Position numbers and translations under genes: made by a program. This document shows, in pieces, positions 264-8,307 of a DNA stretch of 64,000 bases. The stretch is from sequence record MZ358387; one strand, written 5' to 3'. Positions within the stretch are counted from its first letter, which is position 1, and every line of letters starts with the position of its first letter. Source of the stretch: Shigella virus Moo19. The notes under the pieces were generated by a model. The model was not told the DNA's origin, searched no databases, and worked only from the letters and a program-made list of their open reading frames with translations.

Positions 264-674
264 ATGGACATCTACGGTCTTGATATAGAAACACAGACAC
301 AAAAGAAAGAAGCTGACCCATACGTGATAGGTTCAGCTCAGTTCTTCGCCACCATCTTTGGTAACAAACACGCTATCCTTCTCCCAGATTGTGAAGAATC
401 CCACGAACTAGTAGGTTGCTGGCTGTTAGACAACATCCCACTAACCACTCGTATCATGAAGCAAGGTGAGACTATCATCTACAATCTGGAAGACTATGGA
501 ATACAAGAGGATGGTCAGTACACATGGATGCCACCTACTTACTTTATTCCACTGCCTGACTGGGAACTCATAGCTTCTCACGACGTATTCAAAAGGCAGA
601 TTGCTATCTACTTCCGTCCACGCCCTACCTGGAGAAAGAATCCATATGCAAGTCCAATTAATCTGTCGCAGTGA
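264..674 (+). CDS. Hypothetical early protein, member A of tandem small-ORF paralog family (SHELVGCWLL motif)
   Basis: ORF track; aggag RBS at 255-259; shares H-E-(V/L/F)-x-G-x-L-L motif with downstream ORFs. Confidence 0.4.
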   Translation: MDIYGLDIETQTQKKEADPYVIGSAQFFATIFGNKHAILLPDCEESHELVGCWLLDNIPLTTRIMKQGETIIYNLEDYGIQEDGQYTWMPPTYFIPLPDWELIASHDVFKRQIAIYFRPRPTWRKNPYASPINLSQ

Positions 675-1011
675 TAAAGATTCTGATGTAGTAAACGCAT
701 TAGAAATTCCATTCGACTTCTTTAGTCATGAGCTACACCTGAGCCAAGTAATCCTGGTTCCCTCCCTTGAGCATTATCATGAAGTTCAGGGGCAACTGTT
801 AATCAATGGTGTGACTGCTAAAGTAATCTGCATTCTTCCACCATCCCAATATCAGCCACCAGTTGGAAGTGTTCCTTATGCACTAGTCACTGATGACTAC
901 GTTGCTAAGTGTGACCCACTGCCTAATGTTGGTAAGTACAACGATACTTTAAATCTTACTTATTATTTCGAGAAGAAAGATGCAGCTACAACTAACGAGG
1001 TTCATGAGTAA
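646..1011 (+). CDS. Hypothetical early protein, paralog family member B (YHEVQGQLLINGVTAKV)
   Basis: ORF track 601-1011; first in-frame ATG beyond most of the overlap with upstream ORF is 646. Confidence 0.4.
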   Translation: MQVQLICRSDKDSDVVNALEIPFDFFSHELHLSQVILVPSLEHYHEVQGQLLINGVTAKVICILPPSQYQPPVGSVPYALVTDDYVAKCDPLPNVGKYNDTLNLTYYFEKKDAATTNEVHE

Positions 1012-1288
1012 CCCTCATAACTTATCTCTAGTGCACCCGGACGCAGAACCTTATCTATTAAGTGACGTTGGTTATGTACTCAGCGGTGAGTCCAAAGTCG
1101 TTATGCTTACCAGTGAGTCAGCTAACCTATTCCTCGTTGAGTGCATGATGCGGGGTGTCAATGCTGATATCACCCTCAAGGAACCAGGTGAGAAAGTATA
1201 TGGTGGCCTGCTCTGCTACTTAATACATAGTCCGCATGAGTATCCTGACTACGATAATGATGGTTATGTCTGGATAAGGAGGCCGTAA
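1004..1288 (+). CDS. Hypothetical early protein, paralog family member C (ends WIRRP)
   Basis: ORF track 980-1288; ATG 1004 overlaps upstream stop (ATGAGTAA). Confidence 0.45.
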   Translation: MSNPHNLSLVHPDAEPYLLSDVGYVLSGESKVVMLTSESANLFLVECMMRGVNADITLKEPGEKVYGGLLCYLIHSPHEYPDYDNDGYVWIRRP

Positions 1289-1563
1289 TGTTTGCCTATT
1301 TTGTACGCTCTACTTACGATGCCTACCACGGTATGCTATCCATCAAGTTAGAAGTAGGGCAACACTGGCCTACTTTTGAACCAGGAACAGCAGCTATTTG
1401 GGTTCATCCTGACATAGACTTTCATGAAGTACAGGGTGACCTGTTACTTCGGGGTAAGACAGCTAAGCTGATGGAATGTCCTCCGAACTATCGAATAAAA
1501 GAGAGTGGCATATTCATCCTGGCTCATAGTTACAGTAATGCACTGGAGTTACTGCGTCCATGA
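1288..1563 (+). CDS. Hypothetical early protein, paralog family member D (FHEVQGDLLLRGKTAKL, ends LLRP)
   Basis: ORF track; start overlaps upstream stop (TAATG). Confidence 0.5.
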   Translation: MFAYFVRSTYDAYHGMLSIKLEVGQHWPTFEPGTAAIWVHPDIDFHEVQGDLLLRGKTAKLMECPPNYRIKESGIFILAHSYSNALELLRP

Positions 1564-1922
1564 ATCTCTTCCTAATACCCCCTATGTCCTGTAATCCGCT
1601 TAAGCTGGTGGGCGAACAACCTACCTGGGATAGACTTGGCGTAACTAAAGAGACTGTCCTGTATGAACCAAGTGAAGAAGCACACGAGTTCATTGGTCAC
1701 TGTCTCATGATAAGTAGTGAAATACAGTTCAAGTCTCTTGCTGAACCAGTAGAAGTAAGGGAACAGGATAAGGTTTATGTAATAGGGCATCACTATCCTG
1801 ATGTATGCACCACCTTACAGGGCAGGCTTATCAGGCTTACTGATGAGAGTACCTGCATCCAGTGTACCTGCTATCACCCCTGCCCTTCTTCAAAGAAGGT
1901 TATCTACCCACTGGATATCTAA
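1560..1922 (+). CDS. Hypothetical early protein, paralog family member E (AHEFIGHCLM), Cys-rich C-terminus
   Basis: ORF track; ATGA overlap with upstream gene. Confidence 0.45.
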   Translation: MNLFLIPPMSCNPLKLVGEQPTWDRLGVTKETVLYEPSEEAHEFIGHCLMISSEIQFKSLAEPVEVREQDKVYVIGHHYPDVCTTLQGRLIRLTDESTCIQCTCYHPCPSSKKVIYPLDI

Positions 1923-2210
1923 ATGAATCTTACTAAGATACACGTTACTCCTACTAAGATGGTTAACTGTCCTATAACTAAAAAGTTATTTACTGTATCC
2001 AGTGACATACTCATTCTTGTACCAGACCTGGATAGCTTTCATGAAGTGAAAGGACAGGAGATGTTACTCAATAAGAAATGGGAAGTTCATCTACTTGAAC
2101 CAGGAAAGGAACTTAGGTGGCTGGGTATGTACAGTCCCTGGCATCTTAATACGGATAGCTACCGTCTTACCTTTACTGACCATATTGCTGTATATACTCC
2201 ACGCCCCTAG
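1923..2210 (+). CDS. Hypothetical early protein, paralog family member F (FHEVKGQEMLL, ends YTPRP)
   Basis: ORF track; tttcatgaagt nucleotide motif shared with members B and D. Confidence 0.5.
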   Translation: MNLTKIHVTPTKMVNCPITKKLFTVSSDILILVPDLDSFHEVKGQEMLLNKKWEVHLLEPGKELRWLGMYSPWHLNTDSYRLTFTDHIAVYTPRP

Positions 2211-3209: not shown

Positions 3210-3276
3210 AAACCGCATCTAGAAACTGGGCTGTTCCACAGCTTACGGATACATTTCAACCAATTAGGAGGCATCC

Positions 3277-3583: not shown

Positions 3584-3600
3584 AAGACGCTCCGCGTCTT
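3584..3600 (+). promoter_or_regulatory. Tri-loop hairpin aagacgc-TCC-gcgtctt (7-bp stem); candidate vRNAP early promoter hairpin
   Basis: Perfect inverted repeat; GC-TCC-GC core shared with 2596 and 7442. Confidence 0.35.
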
Positions 3601-4422: not shown

Positions 4423-4575
4423 ATGAAGCTACTGGCAGAGATTCTATGTATTTTATTAATGATACTGCTGGTAGCTGCATTTCCGTGGCTATTAGCCGTA
4501 GGCGTAATTATTGGCATGTTCGCAGCCGGAGTGAATGATGCTCGTGGCAGAGATGAACCAGGTGGAGACGTATAA
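4423..4575 (+). CDS. Small membrane protein (50 aa, MKLLAEILCILLMILLVAAFPWLLAVGVIIGMF...)
   Basis: ORF track frame 4345-4575; ATG 4423 with aagga RBS; hydrophobic. Confidence 0.4.
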   Translation: MKLLAEILCILLMILLVAAFPWLLAVGVIIGMFAAGVNDARGRDEPGGDV

Positions 4576-4845: not shown

Positions 4846-4989
4846 TGGGAACCAGAGAAGATGTTATTAAGCGTCGTGCTAAACAAGTTACTGCTCAATC
4901 AGTGCCTGTTACTGGTTATAGTAGAACATATAACAGTAAGCCTAAGCAGTATATCGTAACTTTCAATCATCCTTGTATTCAATAATAGT

Positions 4990-5017
4990 GGCTCCCATTA
5001 GGGAGCTTCTATTTTTT
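4990..5017 (+). terminator. Terminator (gctccc-atta-gggagc + T tract)
   Basis: Read directly. Confidence 0.5.
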
Positions 5018-5031
5018 ATTTAGAATAGTTA

Positions 5032-5062
5032 GTCCCGAAGGGACAATCTTACGAAGTAAGAT
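5032..5062 (+). promoter_or_regulatory. Two adjacent GAA tri-loop hairpins (gtccc-GAA-gggac; atcttac-GAA-gtaagat)
   Basis: Perfect inverted repeats read directly; function unknown. Confidence 0.3.
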
Positions 5063-5095
5063 TAGACATAGATAGATATAGGAGAAACTATTAAA

Positions 5096-5404
5096 TTGTT
5101 AAATGAAATCATCTGTATTCCACAGAATAAGGCTCGCATTGCAGATAGGAATATTCGTATTCATCTGCCAATGCCATTAGCTAACCCATTCAGTAAGTCT
5201 GAAAGACTGAACCAGGATGATGTAGATGTGGCTTATGAGGCATATCTGCGTAATCGTCTTATCTCAGGCGATAAGCTAATCACTGCTGAAATGGAAAAGA
5301 TTGCAGGCTTTGTCATGGACAAAACAGGCAAACCTGTAGGACTGATAGGCAATGAGCCAGAGGTAAATGTAATACGTAAACTTATTATGGAGGCTATTGG
5401 ATAA
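5096..5404 (+). CDS. Hypothetical protein; N-terminal half resembles DUF4326-type motif (LANPF...AYEAYL) seen in ORF 6220
   Basis: ORF track (non-ATG start at 5096 implied); start uncertain. Confidence 0.35.
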   Translation: MLNEIICIPQNKARIADRNIRIHLPMPLANPFSKSERLNQDDVDVAYEAYLRNRLISGDKLITAEMEKIAGFVMDKTGKPVGLIGNEPEVNVIRKLIMEAIG

Positions 5405-5625
5405 TGATTCTTAATCCTAATTACCGTACATGTGAAATATGTGGTAAACACAGGGCTAAGGGAAATCATAATAAGTGTTCACGTATACTACAGAAGCAAC
5501 GTAATAATGCTGAACAAGCATTAATATTAGAGAACCAGAGGAAACACGAAGAGTACATCTCTGTTCGTAAGGCTTCTCTAAACAAATTTAGAAGGAAACC
5601 ATTTATACGTATAAGTAAAGGTTAA
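5404..5625 (+). CDS. Hypothetical basic protein with CxxC...H...C (possible zinc-binding)
   Basis: ORF track; composition. Confidence 0.35.
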   Translation: MILNPNYRTCEICGKHRAKGNHNKCSRILQKQRNNAEQALILENQRKHEEYISVRKASLNKFRRKPFIRISKG

Positions 5626-5627
5626 CT

Positions 5628-5912
5628 ATGAAAGTAATCACCTATCCTACTCATAAAATAGCACTCTACATGGGACAAAAAGTAGAAGTTCCATTATGGG
5701 TTAAATATTTAGCAGTACTTCCAATGATGTATGGTCATTCAAGTTCTGCACTAATTGGCTTCAGCCATAAACCCAAATTCACTAAGACTGGTATTTGGAA
5801 AATATCATCTCAGTATAAGAACACTAAGCAGGAACAAATAGGCATAGTCCGTAACTTTGCTCCTGCTAAAAATGAAATTGAAGCTACTCTAAGTGAGGTT
5901 CTATTACCATGA
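5628..5912 (+). CDS. Hypothetical protein (94 aa)
   Basis: ORF track. Confidence 0.4.
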   Translation: MKVITYPTHKIALYMGQKVEVPLWVKYLAVLPMMYGHSSSALIGFSHKPKFTKTGIWKISSQYKNTKQEQIGIVRNFAPAKNEIEATLSEVLLP

Positions 5913-6223
5913 CTACCATCGTAGTATTGCATGACACCACATTCAAAGATGTGGATAAGATGATGAACAATATAGACTATGTTGCTCAGCATTCTAAAGC
6001 ATTCAATGGGGAGTTCACTATTTATTGTGAACCAGAATCTCCATTGGCTCCTGTATTAAAAGAAGCAGGGCTTCCGTTCAGTACTACTGACTTCCCAGAA
6101 GAACCTGACTTCGTTATCTCATTCATCTACGATTTACACGACGGTTCTAAAGCCAGTGAACTGGCAATGAACCAGTGGAAGTCTCGCCGTCCTGTATGGC
6201 CTTTCCAGGTACTGAAACCATGA
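5909..6223 (+). CDS. Hypothetical protein (104 aa)
   Basis: ORF track; ATGA overlaps with neighbours. Confidence 0.4.
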   Translation: MTTIVVLHDTTFKDVDKMMNNIDYVAQHSKAFNGEFTIYCEPESPLAPVLKEAGLPFSTTDFPEEPDFVISFIYDLHDGSKASELAMNQWKSRRPVWPFQVLKP

Positions 6224-6600
6224 AGACTATCTCATTAGGTGACGATACCAATGCTTTGCTGGGTGTAGCTGCACGTCCAATCATCATTGTTAATAAACAT
6301 CATGGTAAACCGGGTGAGTATATTGGACGTGGTTCACCATTGGGTAATCCATACCCAATTGGTGATAAATACAACCGTCAACAAGCTATTGCTATGTATC
6401 GTGTCTGGCTGCAAGAACAGATTGATAAAGGTAATCCAGTTGTACTGGATGAACTTAATCGTCTGGGTAATAAAGCCATTGACGAAAAAGGACTGGCCTT
6501 ACAGTGCTTCTGTTATCCGAAACCATGTCATGGTGAGGTTATTAAAGAGAAGCTCGTAGAGGCTATGTACAACTACTTTGTGGAGAATCCAAATGAGTAA
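6220..6600 (+). CDS. DUF4326-like protein (GRGSPLGNPY ... CFCYPKPCHGEV)
   Basis: Motifs GNP and C-x-C-x-P-x-P-CHG recalled as DUF4326 signature; ATG 6220 overlaps upstream stop. Confidence 0.5.
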   Translation: MKTISLGDDTNALLGVAARPIIIVNKHHGKPGEYIGRGSPLGNPYPIGDKYNRQQAIAMYRVWLQEQIDKGNPVVLDELNRLGNKAIDEKGLALQCFCYPKPCHGEVIKEKLVEAMYNYFVENPNE

Positions 6601-6787
6601 GCAATGTAAATGTGGTAAAGGCTATGTATCCCAATGGGATGATAAGTGTGGTAAATGCCGAACCAAGAAGGAACAGCGTGACCATCAAATAGCTTTAAGG
6701 GACTTAGACCTGTATATCGCAGGTCGTCCAGAATTTAATATGACTCCACAAGAAGCCTATAAAGGCTTAAGGAAACTGTACAAATGA
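6593..6787 (+). CDS. Small zinc-ribbon-like protein (CKCGKG...CGKC)
   Basis: ORF track frame; ATG 6593 with ggag RBS; two Cys pairs. Confidence 0.4.
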   Translation: MSKQCKCGKGYVSQWDDKCGKCRTKKEQRDHQIALRDLDLYIAGRPEFNMTPQEAYKGLRKLYK

Positions 6788-7167
6788 AAGAAATATTCGT
6801 ATTCGGTTCTAATCTGGCTGGTGTACACGGTGCTGGTGCAGCTAAGACTGCATATAAGAAGCACGGTGCTCGTTGGGGTATGGGCGTAGGCCATTATGGT
6901 TGCAGCTATGCAATTCCAACTAAAGACCAGAACATCAAAACAATGGAGTTGGTTGATATCGCTGTATTTGTATCTGCCTTCATCCTGTATGCAGCAGCAC
7001 ACCCAGAGTGGGACTTCAAAGTAACACGAGTAGGTTGTGGGCTGGCTGGCCTGTCTGATAAAGACATGGCATTCATGTTCTTACCTGCAACAGGTAATGT
7101 CATGTTTGATGAAGCATGGAAACCTTATTTAGGTGATACCTATAACTACTGGGGTACATTCGAATGA
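6784..7167 (+). CDS. Gly-rich Rossmann-like motif protein (FVFGSNLAGVHGAGAAKTA...GCGLAGL); possible nucleotide-binding (SLOG/macro-like?)
   Basis: Motif only; family assignment uncertain. Confidence 0.35.
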   Translation: MKEIFVFGSNLAGVHGAGAAKTAYKKHGARWGMGVGHYGCSYAIPTKDQNIKTMELVDIAVFVSAFILYAAAHPEWDFKVTRVGCGLAGLSDKDMAFMFLPATGNVMFDEAWKPYLGDTYNYWGTFE

Positions 7168-7436
7168 CCTATGAAGAATTATGGGCTGCTCAAGTAAGAA
7201 GTAAGGCGAGAGCCTTTGCTCATGTCTACAGCACATTGCAGCATCTTATTAAAAGCAGAACCAAAGCTGGACATATACATGGTTACTACAAAGAAGATTG
7301 TATTCCCGATGGTGACTACCTATGGGATAAAAGAATCCGTCACGAGAGTGACATTATAAAAGTGAATATTGCTATTCATTCATACCCACCAAGGGGTAAT
7401 CGCTACCTATCTATTCACTTTTATACAAAGCGTTAG
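7164..7436 (+). CDS. Hypothetical protein (90 aa)
   Basis: ORF track. Confidence 0.4.
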   Translation: MTYEELWAAQVRSKARAFAHVYSTLQHLIKSRTKAGHIHGYYKEDCIPDGDYLWDKRIRHESDIIKVNIAIHSYPPRGNRYLSIHFYTKR

Positions 7437-7441
7437 GTAAT

Positions 7442-7460
7442 AGCTGCTCCGCAGCTTTTG
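7442..7460 (+). promoter_or_regulatory. Tri-loop hairpin agctgc-TCC-gcagct followed by TTTT; candidate vRNAP promoter hairpin or short terminator, 30 nt upstream of RNAP II genes
   Basis: Perfect 6-bp stem, TCC loop; same GC-TCC-GC core as 2596 and 3584. Confidence 0.35.
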
Positions 7461-7488
7461 GTCATTAATCATATTTAGGAGATATGCG

Positions 7489-8307
7489 ATGTACTCATCT
7501 ATTGAACATCAGAAGCAACTGGAAACTCTGTTTAACAAGAATCAACTAATTCCTCGTATGAGGAAAGAGTTCGAGGACTCCGAAGAAATCCAATTCACTA
7601 AGTATTTTGAGCATATTGGCATCGACCCCAAACTGGGTATTGATGCAATGGTGCAAATTGCTCTGCATAAACGTGCTGACATTCCTACTATGGTTGGCTC
7701 ACTCATGAGTCACAGTCAGGATGCTCAGTACATAGCAGACACTCTGCTTAAGATGGCAGAGCACGACTGCTTTGACTTCGACCCAAGTATCGATAAGTTC
7801 ATCGTCATCTATGAAATCAGTGATGATGTACAACTGGAACTGGAAGCATTCCAGTATCCACTGCCTATCGTCAGTGAACCGAGAGAGGTTAAAGATAACC
7901 GTGGCTCAGGTTACTGGAATACCAAAGGCAGTATCATCCTCAAGAAGAACCACCATGAAATGGATGTGTGTCTCGACCACATTAACCGTATGAACAATCA
8001 ACGACTCAGCATCAACTGGGACGTTGCCAAGTTCGTCAAAAACTCATGGGCTAACCTGGATAAACCTAAAGAAGGGGAATCCCGTCAGGACTTTCAGAAG
8101 CGTGTACGTGCATTCGAGAAATACGACCGTACAGCAAAAGACGTTATGGAACTGGTGACTAAAGAAGGTAACAACTTCTCACTTGACCATAAGTATGACA
8201 AGCGTGGACGCACCTACTCACAGGGCTACCACATTAACTATCAAGGTACTAGCTGGAATAAAGCTGTTATCGAGTTCGCTGATAAGGAGTTGGTAAACGA
8301 TGAGTAG
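7489..8307 (+). CDS. Phage RNA polymerase II small subunit (N4 gp15-like)
   Basis: 272 aa; lies upstream of a T7-like RNAP C-terminal-half homolog; N4-like organisation; strong RBS aggag. Confidence 0.55.
   Translation: MYSSIEHQKQLETLFNKNQLIPRMRKEFEDSEEIQFTKYFEHIGIDPKLGIDAMVQIALHKRADIPTMVGSLMSHSQDAQYIADTLLKMAEHDCFDFDPSIDKFIVIYEISDDVQLELEAFQYPLPIVSEPREVKDNRGSGYWNTKGSIILKKNHHEMDVCLDHINRMNNQRLSINWDVAKFVKNSWANLDKPKEGESRQDFQKRVRAFEKYDRTAKDVMELVTKEGNNFSLDHKYDKRGRTYSQGYHINYQGTSWNKAVIEFADKELVNDE

Follow-up and report, generated by a model that had tools for sequence, protein, structure and literature searches.

Shigella virus Moo19 (sequence record MZ358387; the stretch of 64,000 nucleotides (nt) analysed here is called the window) carries in its early region two genes related to the DUF4326 family, and the first of them almost certainly encodes a full-length homologue that has lost the Cys/His motif of the family. 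These genes are open reading frame (ORF) A, whose product is the homologue of phage N4 gp9 (75% amino acid (aa) identity by tblastn), and ORF B, the homologue of N4 gp12 (87%); their products are referred to below as gp9 and gp12. The Cys-less gp9-like gene lies about 1 kb upstream of the gp12-like gene, and tblastn revealed no third DUF4326-like copy in the window. A megablast search with positions 4900-7500 matched N4-like coliphages only, first Escherichia phage Jgk1 (about 82% nt identity) and then Bp4, PD38, N4, Gamaleyavirus and Klebsiella N4-like phages. The phage is an N4-like coliphage (Schitoviridae) and the locus part of its early region; the order of genes in the window is that of the N4 early, left-end region.

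ORF B represents a typical member of the family. It matches the Pfam DUF4326 profile with 72.3 bits (E 5.3e-20, profile positions 4-82 of 82), above the 25-bit cutoff, and it keeps every invariant family residue: R37, L41, G42, N43 and P44 in the first motif, GRGSPLGNPY, as well as C96, C98, P100, C103 and H104 in the second, CFCYPKPCHG, are invariant across 43 diverse DUF4326 sequences. Its ATG start codon overlaps the TGA of the preceding gene, and RefSeq N4 gp12 (YP_950490) is already annotated as DUF4326 (Pfam PF14216). ORF A starts with a TTG codon, 11 nt before which sits AGGAG, and displays PLANPF at aa 27-32 and AYEAYL at aa 46-51, yet it is devoid of the Cys/His motif. Taken alone, it reaches 18.8 bits against the same Pfam profile (E 0.0026, positions 4-62 of 82), under the cutoff, and curated records label its homologues (N4 gp9, BASEL bas69_0072) 'hypothetical protein'. 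The preliminary description of this DNA had recognised the family signature in ORF B and a similar sequence without the Cys/His motif in ORF A, and both observations hold; a BLASTP comparison aligns the two proteins at 21% identity over 52 aa (E 4e-7).

Profile searches assign both proteins to one and the same family; the outcome that would have refuted the preliminary description, membership of unrelated families, did not occur. DUF4326 is the top Pfam match for all 36 aligned members of the ORF A family (best E 8.9e-6), and phrog_464 takes in both ORF A (E 6e-13) and ORF B (E 2e-36). When the gp9 family was aligned by hhalign with close gp12 homologues the probability was 93%, and with a diverse DUF4326 alignment (the 43 sequences, down to 34% identity) it rose to 99.45%, with an E value of 4.5e-22 over 105 columns, a match that includes the C-terminal strand and helix absent from the Pfam match. 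An exhaustive hmmsearch run with the gp9 profile over 1.84 billion representative proteins gave 12 matches, among them the CxC..CH-bearing DUF4326 proteins P0162, P0163 and P0165 with library-wide E values of 3.6e-8, 1.4e-7 and 4e-6. Among isolated phages, gp9 matches by tblastn the motif-bearing gp15 of Erwinia phage Frozen (37% identity, E 3e-13), a protein about equally close to gp12 (41%) and encoded in the gp12 position, flanked by gp11-like and gp14-like genes.

Structure prediction gives both proteins the same order of elements, β1-β2-long loop-α1-α2-β3-α3. The AlphaFold2 (AF2) model of gp9, for which only its own family alignment served as input, has a predicted local distance difference test score (pLDDT) of 93.5 and a predicted template-modelling score (pTM) of 0.84; the values for gp12 are 92.6 and 0.86, and its model contains an extra N-terminal helix at residues 10-17. 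In gp12, C96 marks the end of strand β3, from which an 8-residue stretch (97-104, the Cys/His loop) leads into helix α3, whereas neither feature is present in gp9 and the β3-α3 link comprises 2 residues (85-86). A Foldseek search of BFVD with the gp9 model retrieved a protein of an Achromobacter N4-like phage with a template-modelling (TM) score of 0.91 and annotated viral DUF4326 proteins with TM scores of 0.71-0.76.

Merging the gp9 and DUF4326 family alignments (gp12 numbering) reveals which residues have been lost. In the gp9 family, hardly any of the nearly invariant polar residues of DUF4326 survives: C96 and C98 fall in a deletion, P, S or G stands in place of C103 and E or D in place of H104, and hhalign finds the CxCxPKxCHG loop shortened by 4 columns. 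R37 has become L or Y, and N25, K26, H28, S39, G42, R53 and K101 are likewise replaced. On the other hand, L41, N43, P44, F/Y45, L64, D88, L94, I108 and A115, which make up the core and the L-x-N-P-F turn, are retained, and D75 is among the residues kept by ORF A. The gp9 family alignment has 31 invariant columns of its own, including R18, N19, R21, H23, P25, P27, E36, N53, D59, E65, the stretch VGLIG at aa 81-85 and E99. In the loop at aa 18-32 the L-x-N-P-F turn is preserved, the invariant Arg of DUF4326 is gone and R18, N19, R21 and H23 are new invariants.

Two individual sequences deserve mention beside this map. P0018, a member of the gp9 family from a 1838-bp ENA contig, contains an exact 19-residue tandem repeat of the NIRVHLPFPLSNPFIRNE(W/R) loop (alignment columns 20-38), which may have arisen by true duplication of this segment, the most conserved one, or from an error of assembly. 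P0168 (99 aa), in which neither the Cys/His loop (LSLLYLNPRGHNHAEII) nor the GNP turn (GNGSPLYSELEG) is present, constitutes a second kind of degenerate DUF4326 relative and is the basal branch of the Cys-less clade described below.

The copy had been called degenerate in the preliminary description, which is correct for the Cys/His motif and the invariant Arg and does not extend to the gene as a whole. In comparisons of the window with Jgk1 and N4 and of these two with each other, the NG86 ratios of nonsynonymous to synonymous substitution (dN/dS) are 0.07-0.18 for gp9 and 0.07-0.26 for gp12, approximate values given that dS is near saturation; together with the 31 invariant columns, they indicate that gp9 is under purifying selection and that the gene is not decaying. 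Cys-less homologues are found in 86 isolated-phage records (65 Escherichia, 11 Klebsiella, 4 Erwinia, 3 Gamaleyavirus and 3 Shigella), and the family is narrow, with 39 clusters at 90% identity, nearly all of them from contigs of about 70 kb.

In a neighbour-joining (NJ) tree of 108 columns with 200 bootstraps, three clades are separated: the 'Frozen-type' proteins, single-copy and with the motif (bootstrap 100), the gp12-type proteins, likewise with the motif and with Fifi450 gp81 among them (bootstrap 96), and the Cys-less proteins, namely gp9, Fifi450 gp80, P0160, P0161 and P0168 (bootstrap 95). The deeper branching order is poorly supported; the Cys-less clade itself appears monophyletic. 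All eight gp9-bearing genomes inspected (the window, Jgk1, N4, AlfredRasser, Klebsiella phages JZBo1, K60PH164C1 and PW7, and Erwinia phage Fifi450) carry a gp9-type, a gp12-type and a gp14-like gene together within about 2 kb, and in Fifi450 the two DUF4326 copies adjoin and overlap, gp81 preceding gp80. We rely on these inspected genomes because the database-wide record counts, 86 for the gp9 type and 71 for the gp12 type, mislead: their thresholds differ, and Klebsiella genomes apparently without gp12 turn out to have it on hand inspection.

By contrast with the two specialised copies of the window lineage, one DUF4326 copy was found beside the gp14-like gene in each of three Frozen-type genomes, in the regions inspected and with gp9 rather than gp12 or Frozen gp15 as the query. 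For Frozen and Fifi051 the whole record was searched by tblastn and matched in one place, the Cys-bearing copy itself; for the third, a Paraburkholderia-associated 76-kb contig (L006), a 10-kb early-region locus was searched. The simplest reading of this distribution is that one old duplication in a common ancestor of Enquatrovirinae-like and Yonginvirus-like phages would have been followed by a one-time loss of the Cys/His loop. The duplicated, diverging pair that had been proposed therefore stands as regards common family membership, and is refined to an old, non-local duplication in view of the 21% identity and of the presence of the Cys-less clade in Klebsiella and some Erwinia N4-like phages as well. 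As a separate observation on one of the inspected genomes, the annotated features of Klebsiella phage K60PH164C1 between 62787 and 72086 (OY978778.1) are opposite-strand structural and lysis genes, all of them pseudo, while tblastn reveals intact gp9-, gp11-, gp12-, gp13- and gp14-like genes on the + strand; the annotation coordinates appear to be shifted or wrong.

The nearest solved folds to the DUF4326 domain, a small β-β-α-α-β-α unit, are the C-terminal domain of RapZ (RapZ-C) and Cys-dependent phosphatases, and numerous dual-specificity phosphatases (DUSPs) and CbiL-type methylases also match both models; a sequence search found no solved DUF4326 structure. In a 2023 work of Burroughs and Aravind, the clade is reportedly named RapZ-C-DUF488-DUF4326, and the superfamily is said to have produced different active sites in one and the same place. 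The structural matches agree with a study of the Aravind laboratory (Iyer et al. 2022, PMC9503650), which assigned DUF4326 to the rhodanese-phosphatase superfamily. The same study predicts a part for DUF4326 proteins in virus-host conflicts, where they would strip terminal phosphates off the ribose of ADP-ribose or of products of its breakdown, and a similar point has been made in PMC7824862. Fusions of the domain to SLOG, Macro and NADAR have been described (PMC9503650, PMC7824862), and the EVADES preprint mentions fusions of DUF4326 with anti-Avs protein homologues.

The preferred explanation, held with moderate confidence and built on comparisons of sequences and models, is that the locus encodes an enzyme-like gp12 and a non-catalytic gp9 paralogue, as the active/inactive pair of the preliminary description had suggested. 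In this scheme, gp12 would be the catalytic or ligand-processing member: C96 would occupy the position of the nucleophile in rhodanese and protein tyrosine phosphatase (PTP) enzymes, and the following loop would correspond to their phosphate-binding loop, supplying K101, C103 and H104, with R37 contributed by the GRGS loop. The substrate might be a phosphate on ribose, either in ADP-ribose-derived molecules or at nucleic-acid ends, and gp12 could work with gp14 early in infection, in counter-defence or host takeover. Since gp9 has neither the Cys/His loop nor the Arg, the ancestral chemistry should be beyond it, and it is probably non-catalytic for that reaction. The strong conservation of gp9, centred on loop residues 18-37, suggests that it binds something, so that it may survive as a non-catalytic binding or regulatory module, comparable to the pseudoenzymes STYX and the inactive myotubularins among phosphatases, or to RapZ-C as a sensor domain.

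The more specific parts of this proposal are to be taken with greater caution. A particular role in ADP-ribose or ribose-phosphate metabolism is a tentative and rather doubtful assignment. A more far-reaching reading, distinctly improbable as far as can be judged at present, sees gp9 and gp12 as pseudoenzyme and enzyme of a counter-defence module that acts early and also takes in gp13 and gp14. It would handle ADP-ribose-derived or ribose-phosphate immune signals or lesions, with gp9 serving as a ligand 'sponge' or as a regulatory or targeting subunit; if true, such a module would give DUF4326 its first functional assignment and represent a new type of anti-defence logic in Schitoviridae.

Several points weigh against the enzyme/non-catalytic paralogue proposal. 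The invariant C-x-C-x4-C-H tetrad resembles a zinc site and, if it is structural, its loss is no proof of lost activity. In gp9, a polar set of its own (R18, N19, R21, H23, E36, R37, N53, R54, D59, E65 and E99) is invariant and might provide a new site. The support of the Cys-less clade, in a tree of 108 columns, may owe part of its height to the shared deletion, and the estimates of selection share the near-saturation of dS. No demonstrated activity of any DUF4326 protein was found in the literature searched, so 'active' denotes a prediction; nor did that literature yield experimental data on N4 gp9 or gp12, the CRISPRi-ART paper mentioning N4 only for rIIA and rIIB. Finally, the link of the locus to ADP-ribose is underpinned by a macro-domain identity of gp14, and no Macro match was obtained for the gp14-like protein in Pfam at E up to 10 (five homologues) or among PDB sequences (single sequence and profile). 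Depositors have labelled gp14-like proteins as macrodomain, Poa1p-like or ADP-ribosylglycohydrolase, labels that could not be reproduced here.

The polar set of gp9 leads to a first alternative, in which gp9 would be a neofunctionalised enzyme that catalyses a different reaction at a new site built from R18, N19, R21, H23 and E36 around the L-x-N-P-F loop. Ten of the 31 invariant columns lie within residues 18-36 and are polar or charged, R21 and H23 stand in place of Y34 and G36 and adjoin the lost R37, and purifying selection on the gene is strong; the active sites that reportedly differ within the superfamily, as noted above, also speak for this reading. However, all phosphatase-like relatives have their phosphate-binding cradle in the β3-α3 loop, which is reduced to only two residues in gp9, and the family contains no invariant Cys or Ser as a nucleophile candidate, leaving this explanation unlikely.

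It has also to be considered that neither protein is an enzyme, the CxCx4CH of gp12 being a structural zinc knuckle and both proteins binding sugar-phosphate, RNA or protein with differing specificity. RapZ-C, counted as the best structural neighbour of both models, binds glucosamine-6-phosphate (GlcN6P) and the small RNA (sRNA) GlmZ and is not known to catalyse a reaction. In addition, gp12 presents four invariant residues of metal-ligand type in compact C-x-C-x4-C-H spacing, and a gp13-like zinc-ribbon is fused to the DUF4326 domain in Fifi450. That C96 of gp12 lies just where the central strand ends, the nucleophile site of rhodanese and PTP enzymes, nevertheless argues for catalysis, as do the conserved R37, K101 and H104, typical of phosphate chemistry, and the enzymatic role predicted by the Aravind-laboratory analyses (PMC9503650); a purely binding pair is accordingly judged quite improbable. 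That ORF A is a decaying remnant, a spurious ORF or a chance resemblance to DUF4326, as its sub-threshold single-sequence Pfam score and TTG start might suggest, can be dismissed in the face of the hhalign E value of 4.5e-22, the library-wide DUF4326 matches, the high-confidence fold, a dN/dS of about 0.1, the intact orthologues in 86 records (about 39 clusters) and the AGGAG upstream of its start.

The enzyme-like gp12 and non-catalytic gp9 of the preferred explanation can be set beside known systems. Within PF14216, ORF B is a typical member at 72 bits, and ORF A has the whole fold and the L-x-N-P-F turn without R37. RapZ-C shares 7-15% sequence identity with them; its partner in the same chain is a kinase-like domain, and it controls the decay of GlmZ, a role of which there is no sign here. 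The HCX5R signature of Cys-dependent phosphatases such as PTEN and DUSPs is absent here, and the DUF4326 domain is far smaller (about 100 aa). Pseudophosphatase paralogues (STYX, inactive myotubularins) offer the functional comparison made above, with no evidence here for protein-phosphate substrates or heterodimerisation. ORF B is already known, and ORF A is a new Cys-less variant of a known family, though PHROGs already groups both.

DUF4326 is present in more than 1,000 phage records, and about 4,900 clusters were retrieved from a large protein collection; in the literature searched, its function is a matter of computational predictions only. DUF4326 genes are often named 'ribonucleotide reductase NrdA-like' or 'DNA repair protein' (e.g., NC_031062.2 FROZEN_15, NC_070869.1 and NC_015933.1). 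Such names have apparently been transferred from PHROG families based on fusion proteins (phrog_24867, phrog_30585) and look unfounded for single-domain proteins of 110-130 aa.

Table 1. Features of the gp9-gp12 locus in the window, and structural matches of the two protein models.
Feature	Position	Strand	Remarks
gp9-like (ORF A)	5096-5404	+	102 aa, TTG start; Cys-less full-length DUF4326 paralogue
gp9 loop RNIRIHLPMPLANPF	5147-5191	+	aa 18-32; counterpart of the DUF4326 GRGSPLGNP loop
gp9 VGLIGNEPE	5336-5362	+	aa 81-89; strand β3 and 2-residue turn in place of the DUF4326 CxCxPKxCHG loop
gp10-like	5404-5625	+	small basic protein
extra ORF	5628-5912		
gp11-like	5909-6223		
gp12-like (ORF B)	6220-6600	+	126 aa, canonical DUF4326 protein
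GRGSPLGNPY motif	6325-6354	+	gp12 aa 36-45
CFCYPKPCHG motif	6505-6534	+	gp12 aa 96-105
gp13-like	6593-6787	+	small Cys4 protein (CxC...CxxC), overlaps gp12 stop codon
gp14-like	6784-7167	+	A1S_2505 family
further ORF	7164-7436		
RNAPII subunit gene, gp15-like	7489-8307		
structural match RapZ / RapZ C-terminal domain			5.8 and 6.1 (two models)
structural match PTEN			5.9 and 4.3 (two models)
structural match NADAR			4.4 and 3.9 (two models)

Among the neighbouring genes (Table 1), the gp14-like gene is consistently found downstream of the Cys-bearing DUF4326 gene in N4-like phages from hosts of four genera (Escherichia, Klebsiella, Erwinia and, by association, Paraburkholderia), and this linkage is the most conserved trait of the neighbourhood. 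Its product matches NCBIfam NF049995 (A1S_2505_Nterm) with an E value of 2.2e-43, its sole family match, and bears the motifs FGSN-x-AG-x-HGAGAA and VGCGLAG. The gp13-like Cys4 mini-protein (QCKCGKGY...KCGKCRT) has homologues fused N-terminally to the DUF4326 domain in gp81 of Erwinia phage Fifi450 and to a 'GTP-binding domain' protein in gp81 of Fifi051. These two fusions mark it as a putative mobile module of the zinc-ribbon type, and the one in Fifi450 suggests a possible functional link with gp12. The gp10-like protein contains the conserved motif C-x2-C-x8-H-x2-C (CEICGK...HNKCSRILQ); the protein itself is kept in Jgk1 and Erwinia N4-like phages and had no match in the N4 early-region locus at E <= 0.01. 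The presence of a small Cys-rich ORF after each DUF4326-like gene raised the idea that a two-gene cassette (gp9-gp10, gp12-gp13) had been duplicated, an idea rejected on comparison of the gp10-like and gp13-like proteins (BLASTP E 0.041; hhalign probability 0.7%).

Directly upstream of ORF A, a terminator-like hairpin with a T-run, GGCTCCC-ATTA-GGGAGCT (TCTATTTTTT), is located at 4990-5007 (+), so that ORF A would open a new segment of the early operon. It is followed, still upstream of ORF A, by a second hairpin, GTCCC-GAA-GGGAC, at 5032-5044 (+). This was considered as a promoter of the N4 virion RNA polymerase for ORF A and found no support, as its loop is GAA on the top strand and the loops of the N4-type early promoters here and in N4 itself read TCC or TTC, with TTxxGGA coming next. 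Hairpins of the TCC-loop type, each with a stem of 5 bp, do occur at four places in the window, at 2596-2608, 3230-3242, 3586-3598 and 7443-7455 (+), each preceding a T-rich stretch and GG (TTACGGA, TTAAGGA, GTATGGA and TTTTGGT). The same hairpin type is found in the N4 early region at 76 (TTC loop), 545 and 4534 (positions within the early-region locus), the one at 4534 being identical in stem and loop to that at 7443 in the window. These TCC-loop hairpins look like N4 virion-RNA-polymerase early promoters. The first of them lies at about 2.6 kb, and the window would thus start about 2.5 kb ahead of the N4-type left end.

Six small tandem ORFs occupy 264-2210 (+), at 264-674, 601-1011, 980-1288, 1288-1563, 1560-1922 and 1923-2210. 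They display weak mutual similarity and a common S/D-x-HE-V/F-x-G motif: by BLASTP, 4 of the 15 pairs match with E values from 2e-5 to 5e-3, joining four of the six ORFs, and those at 980-1288 and 1560-1922 have no pairwise match within the array. The array looks like a fast-diverging family of paralogues upstream of the first putative early promoter.

Inactive paralogues are common in phosphatase-like families, and the advance made here is in this respect incremental. It nonetheless provides an annotation for an otherwise 'hypothetical' early gene, N4 gp9, of a model phage. Moreover, gp9 and gp12 represent a natural control pair in a phage amenable to genetic work: both have the one fold, and gp12 alone has the Cys/His/Arg set. 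This pair could be used to learn the role of DUF4326 and whether its motif is catalytic.

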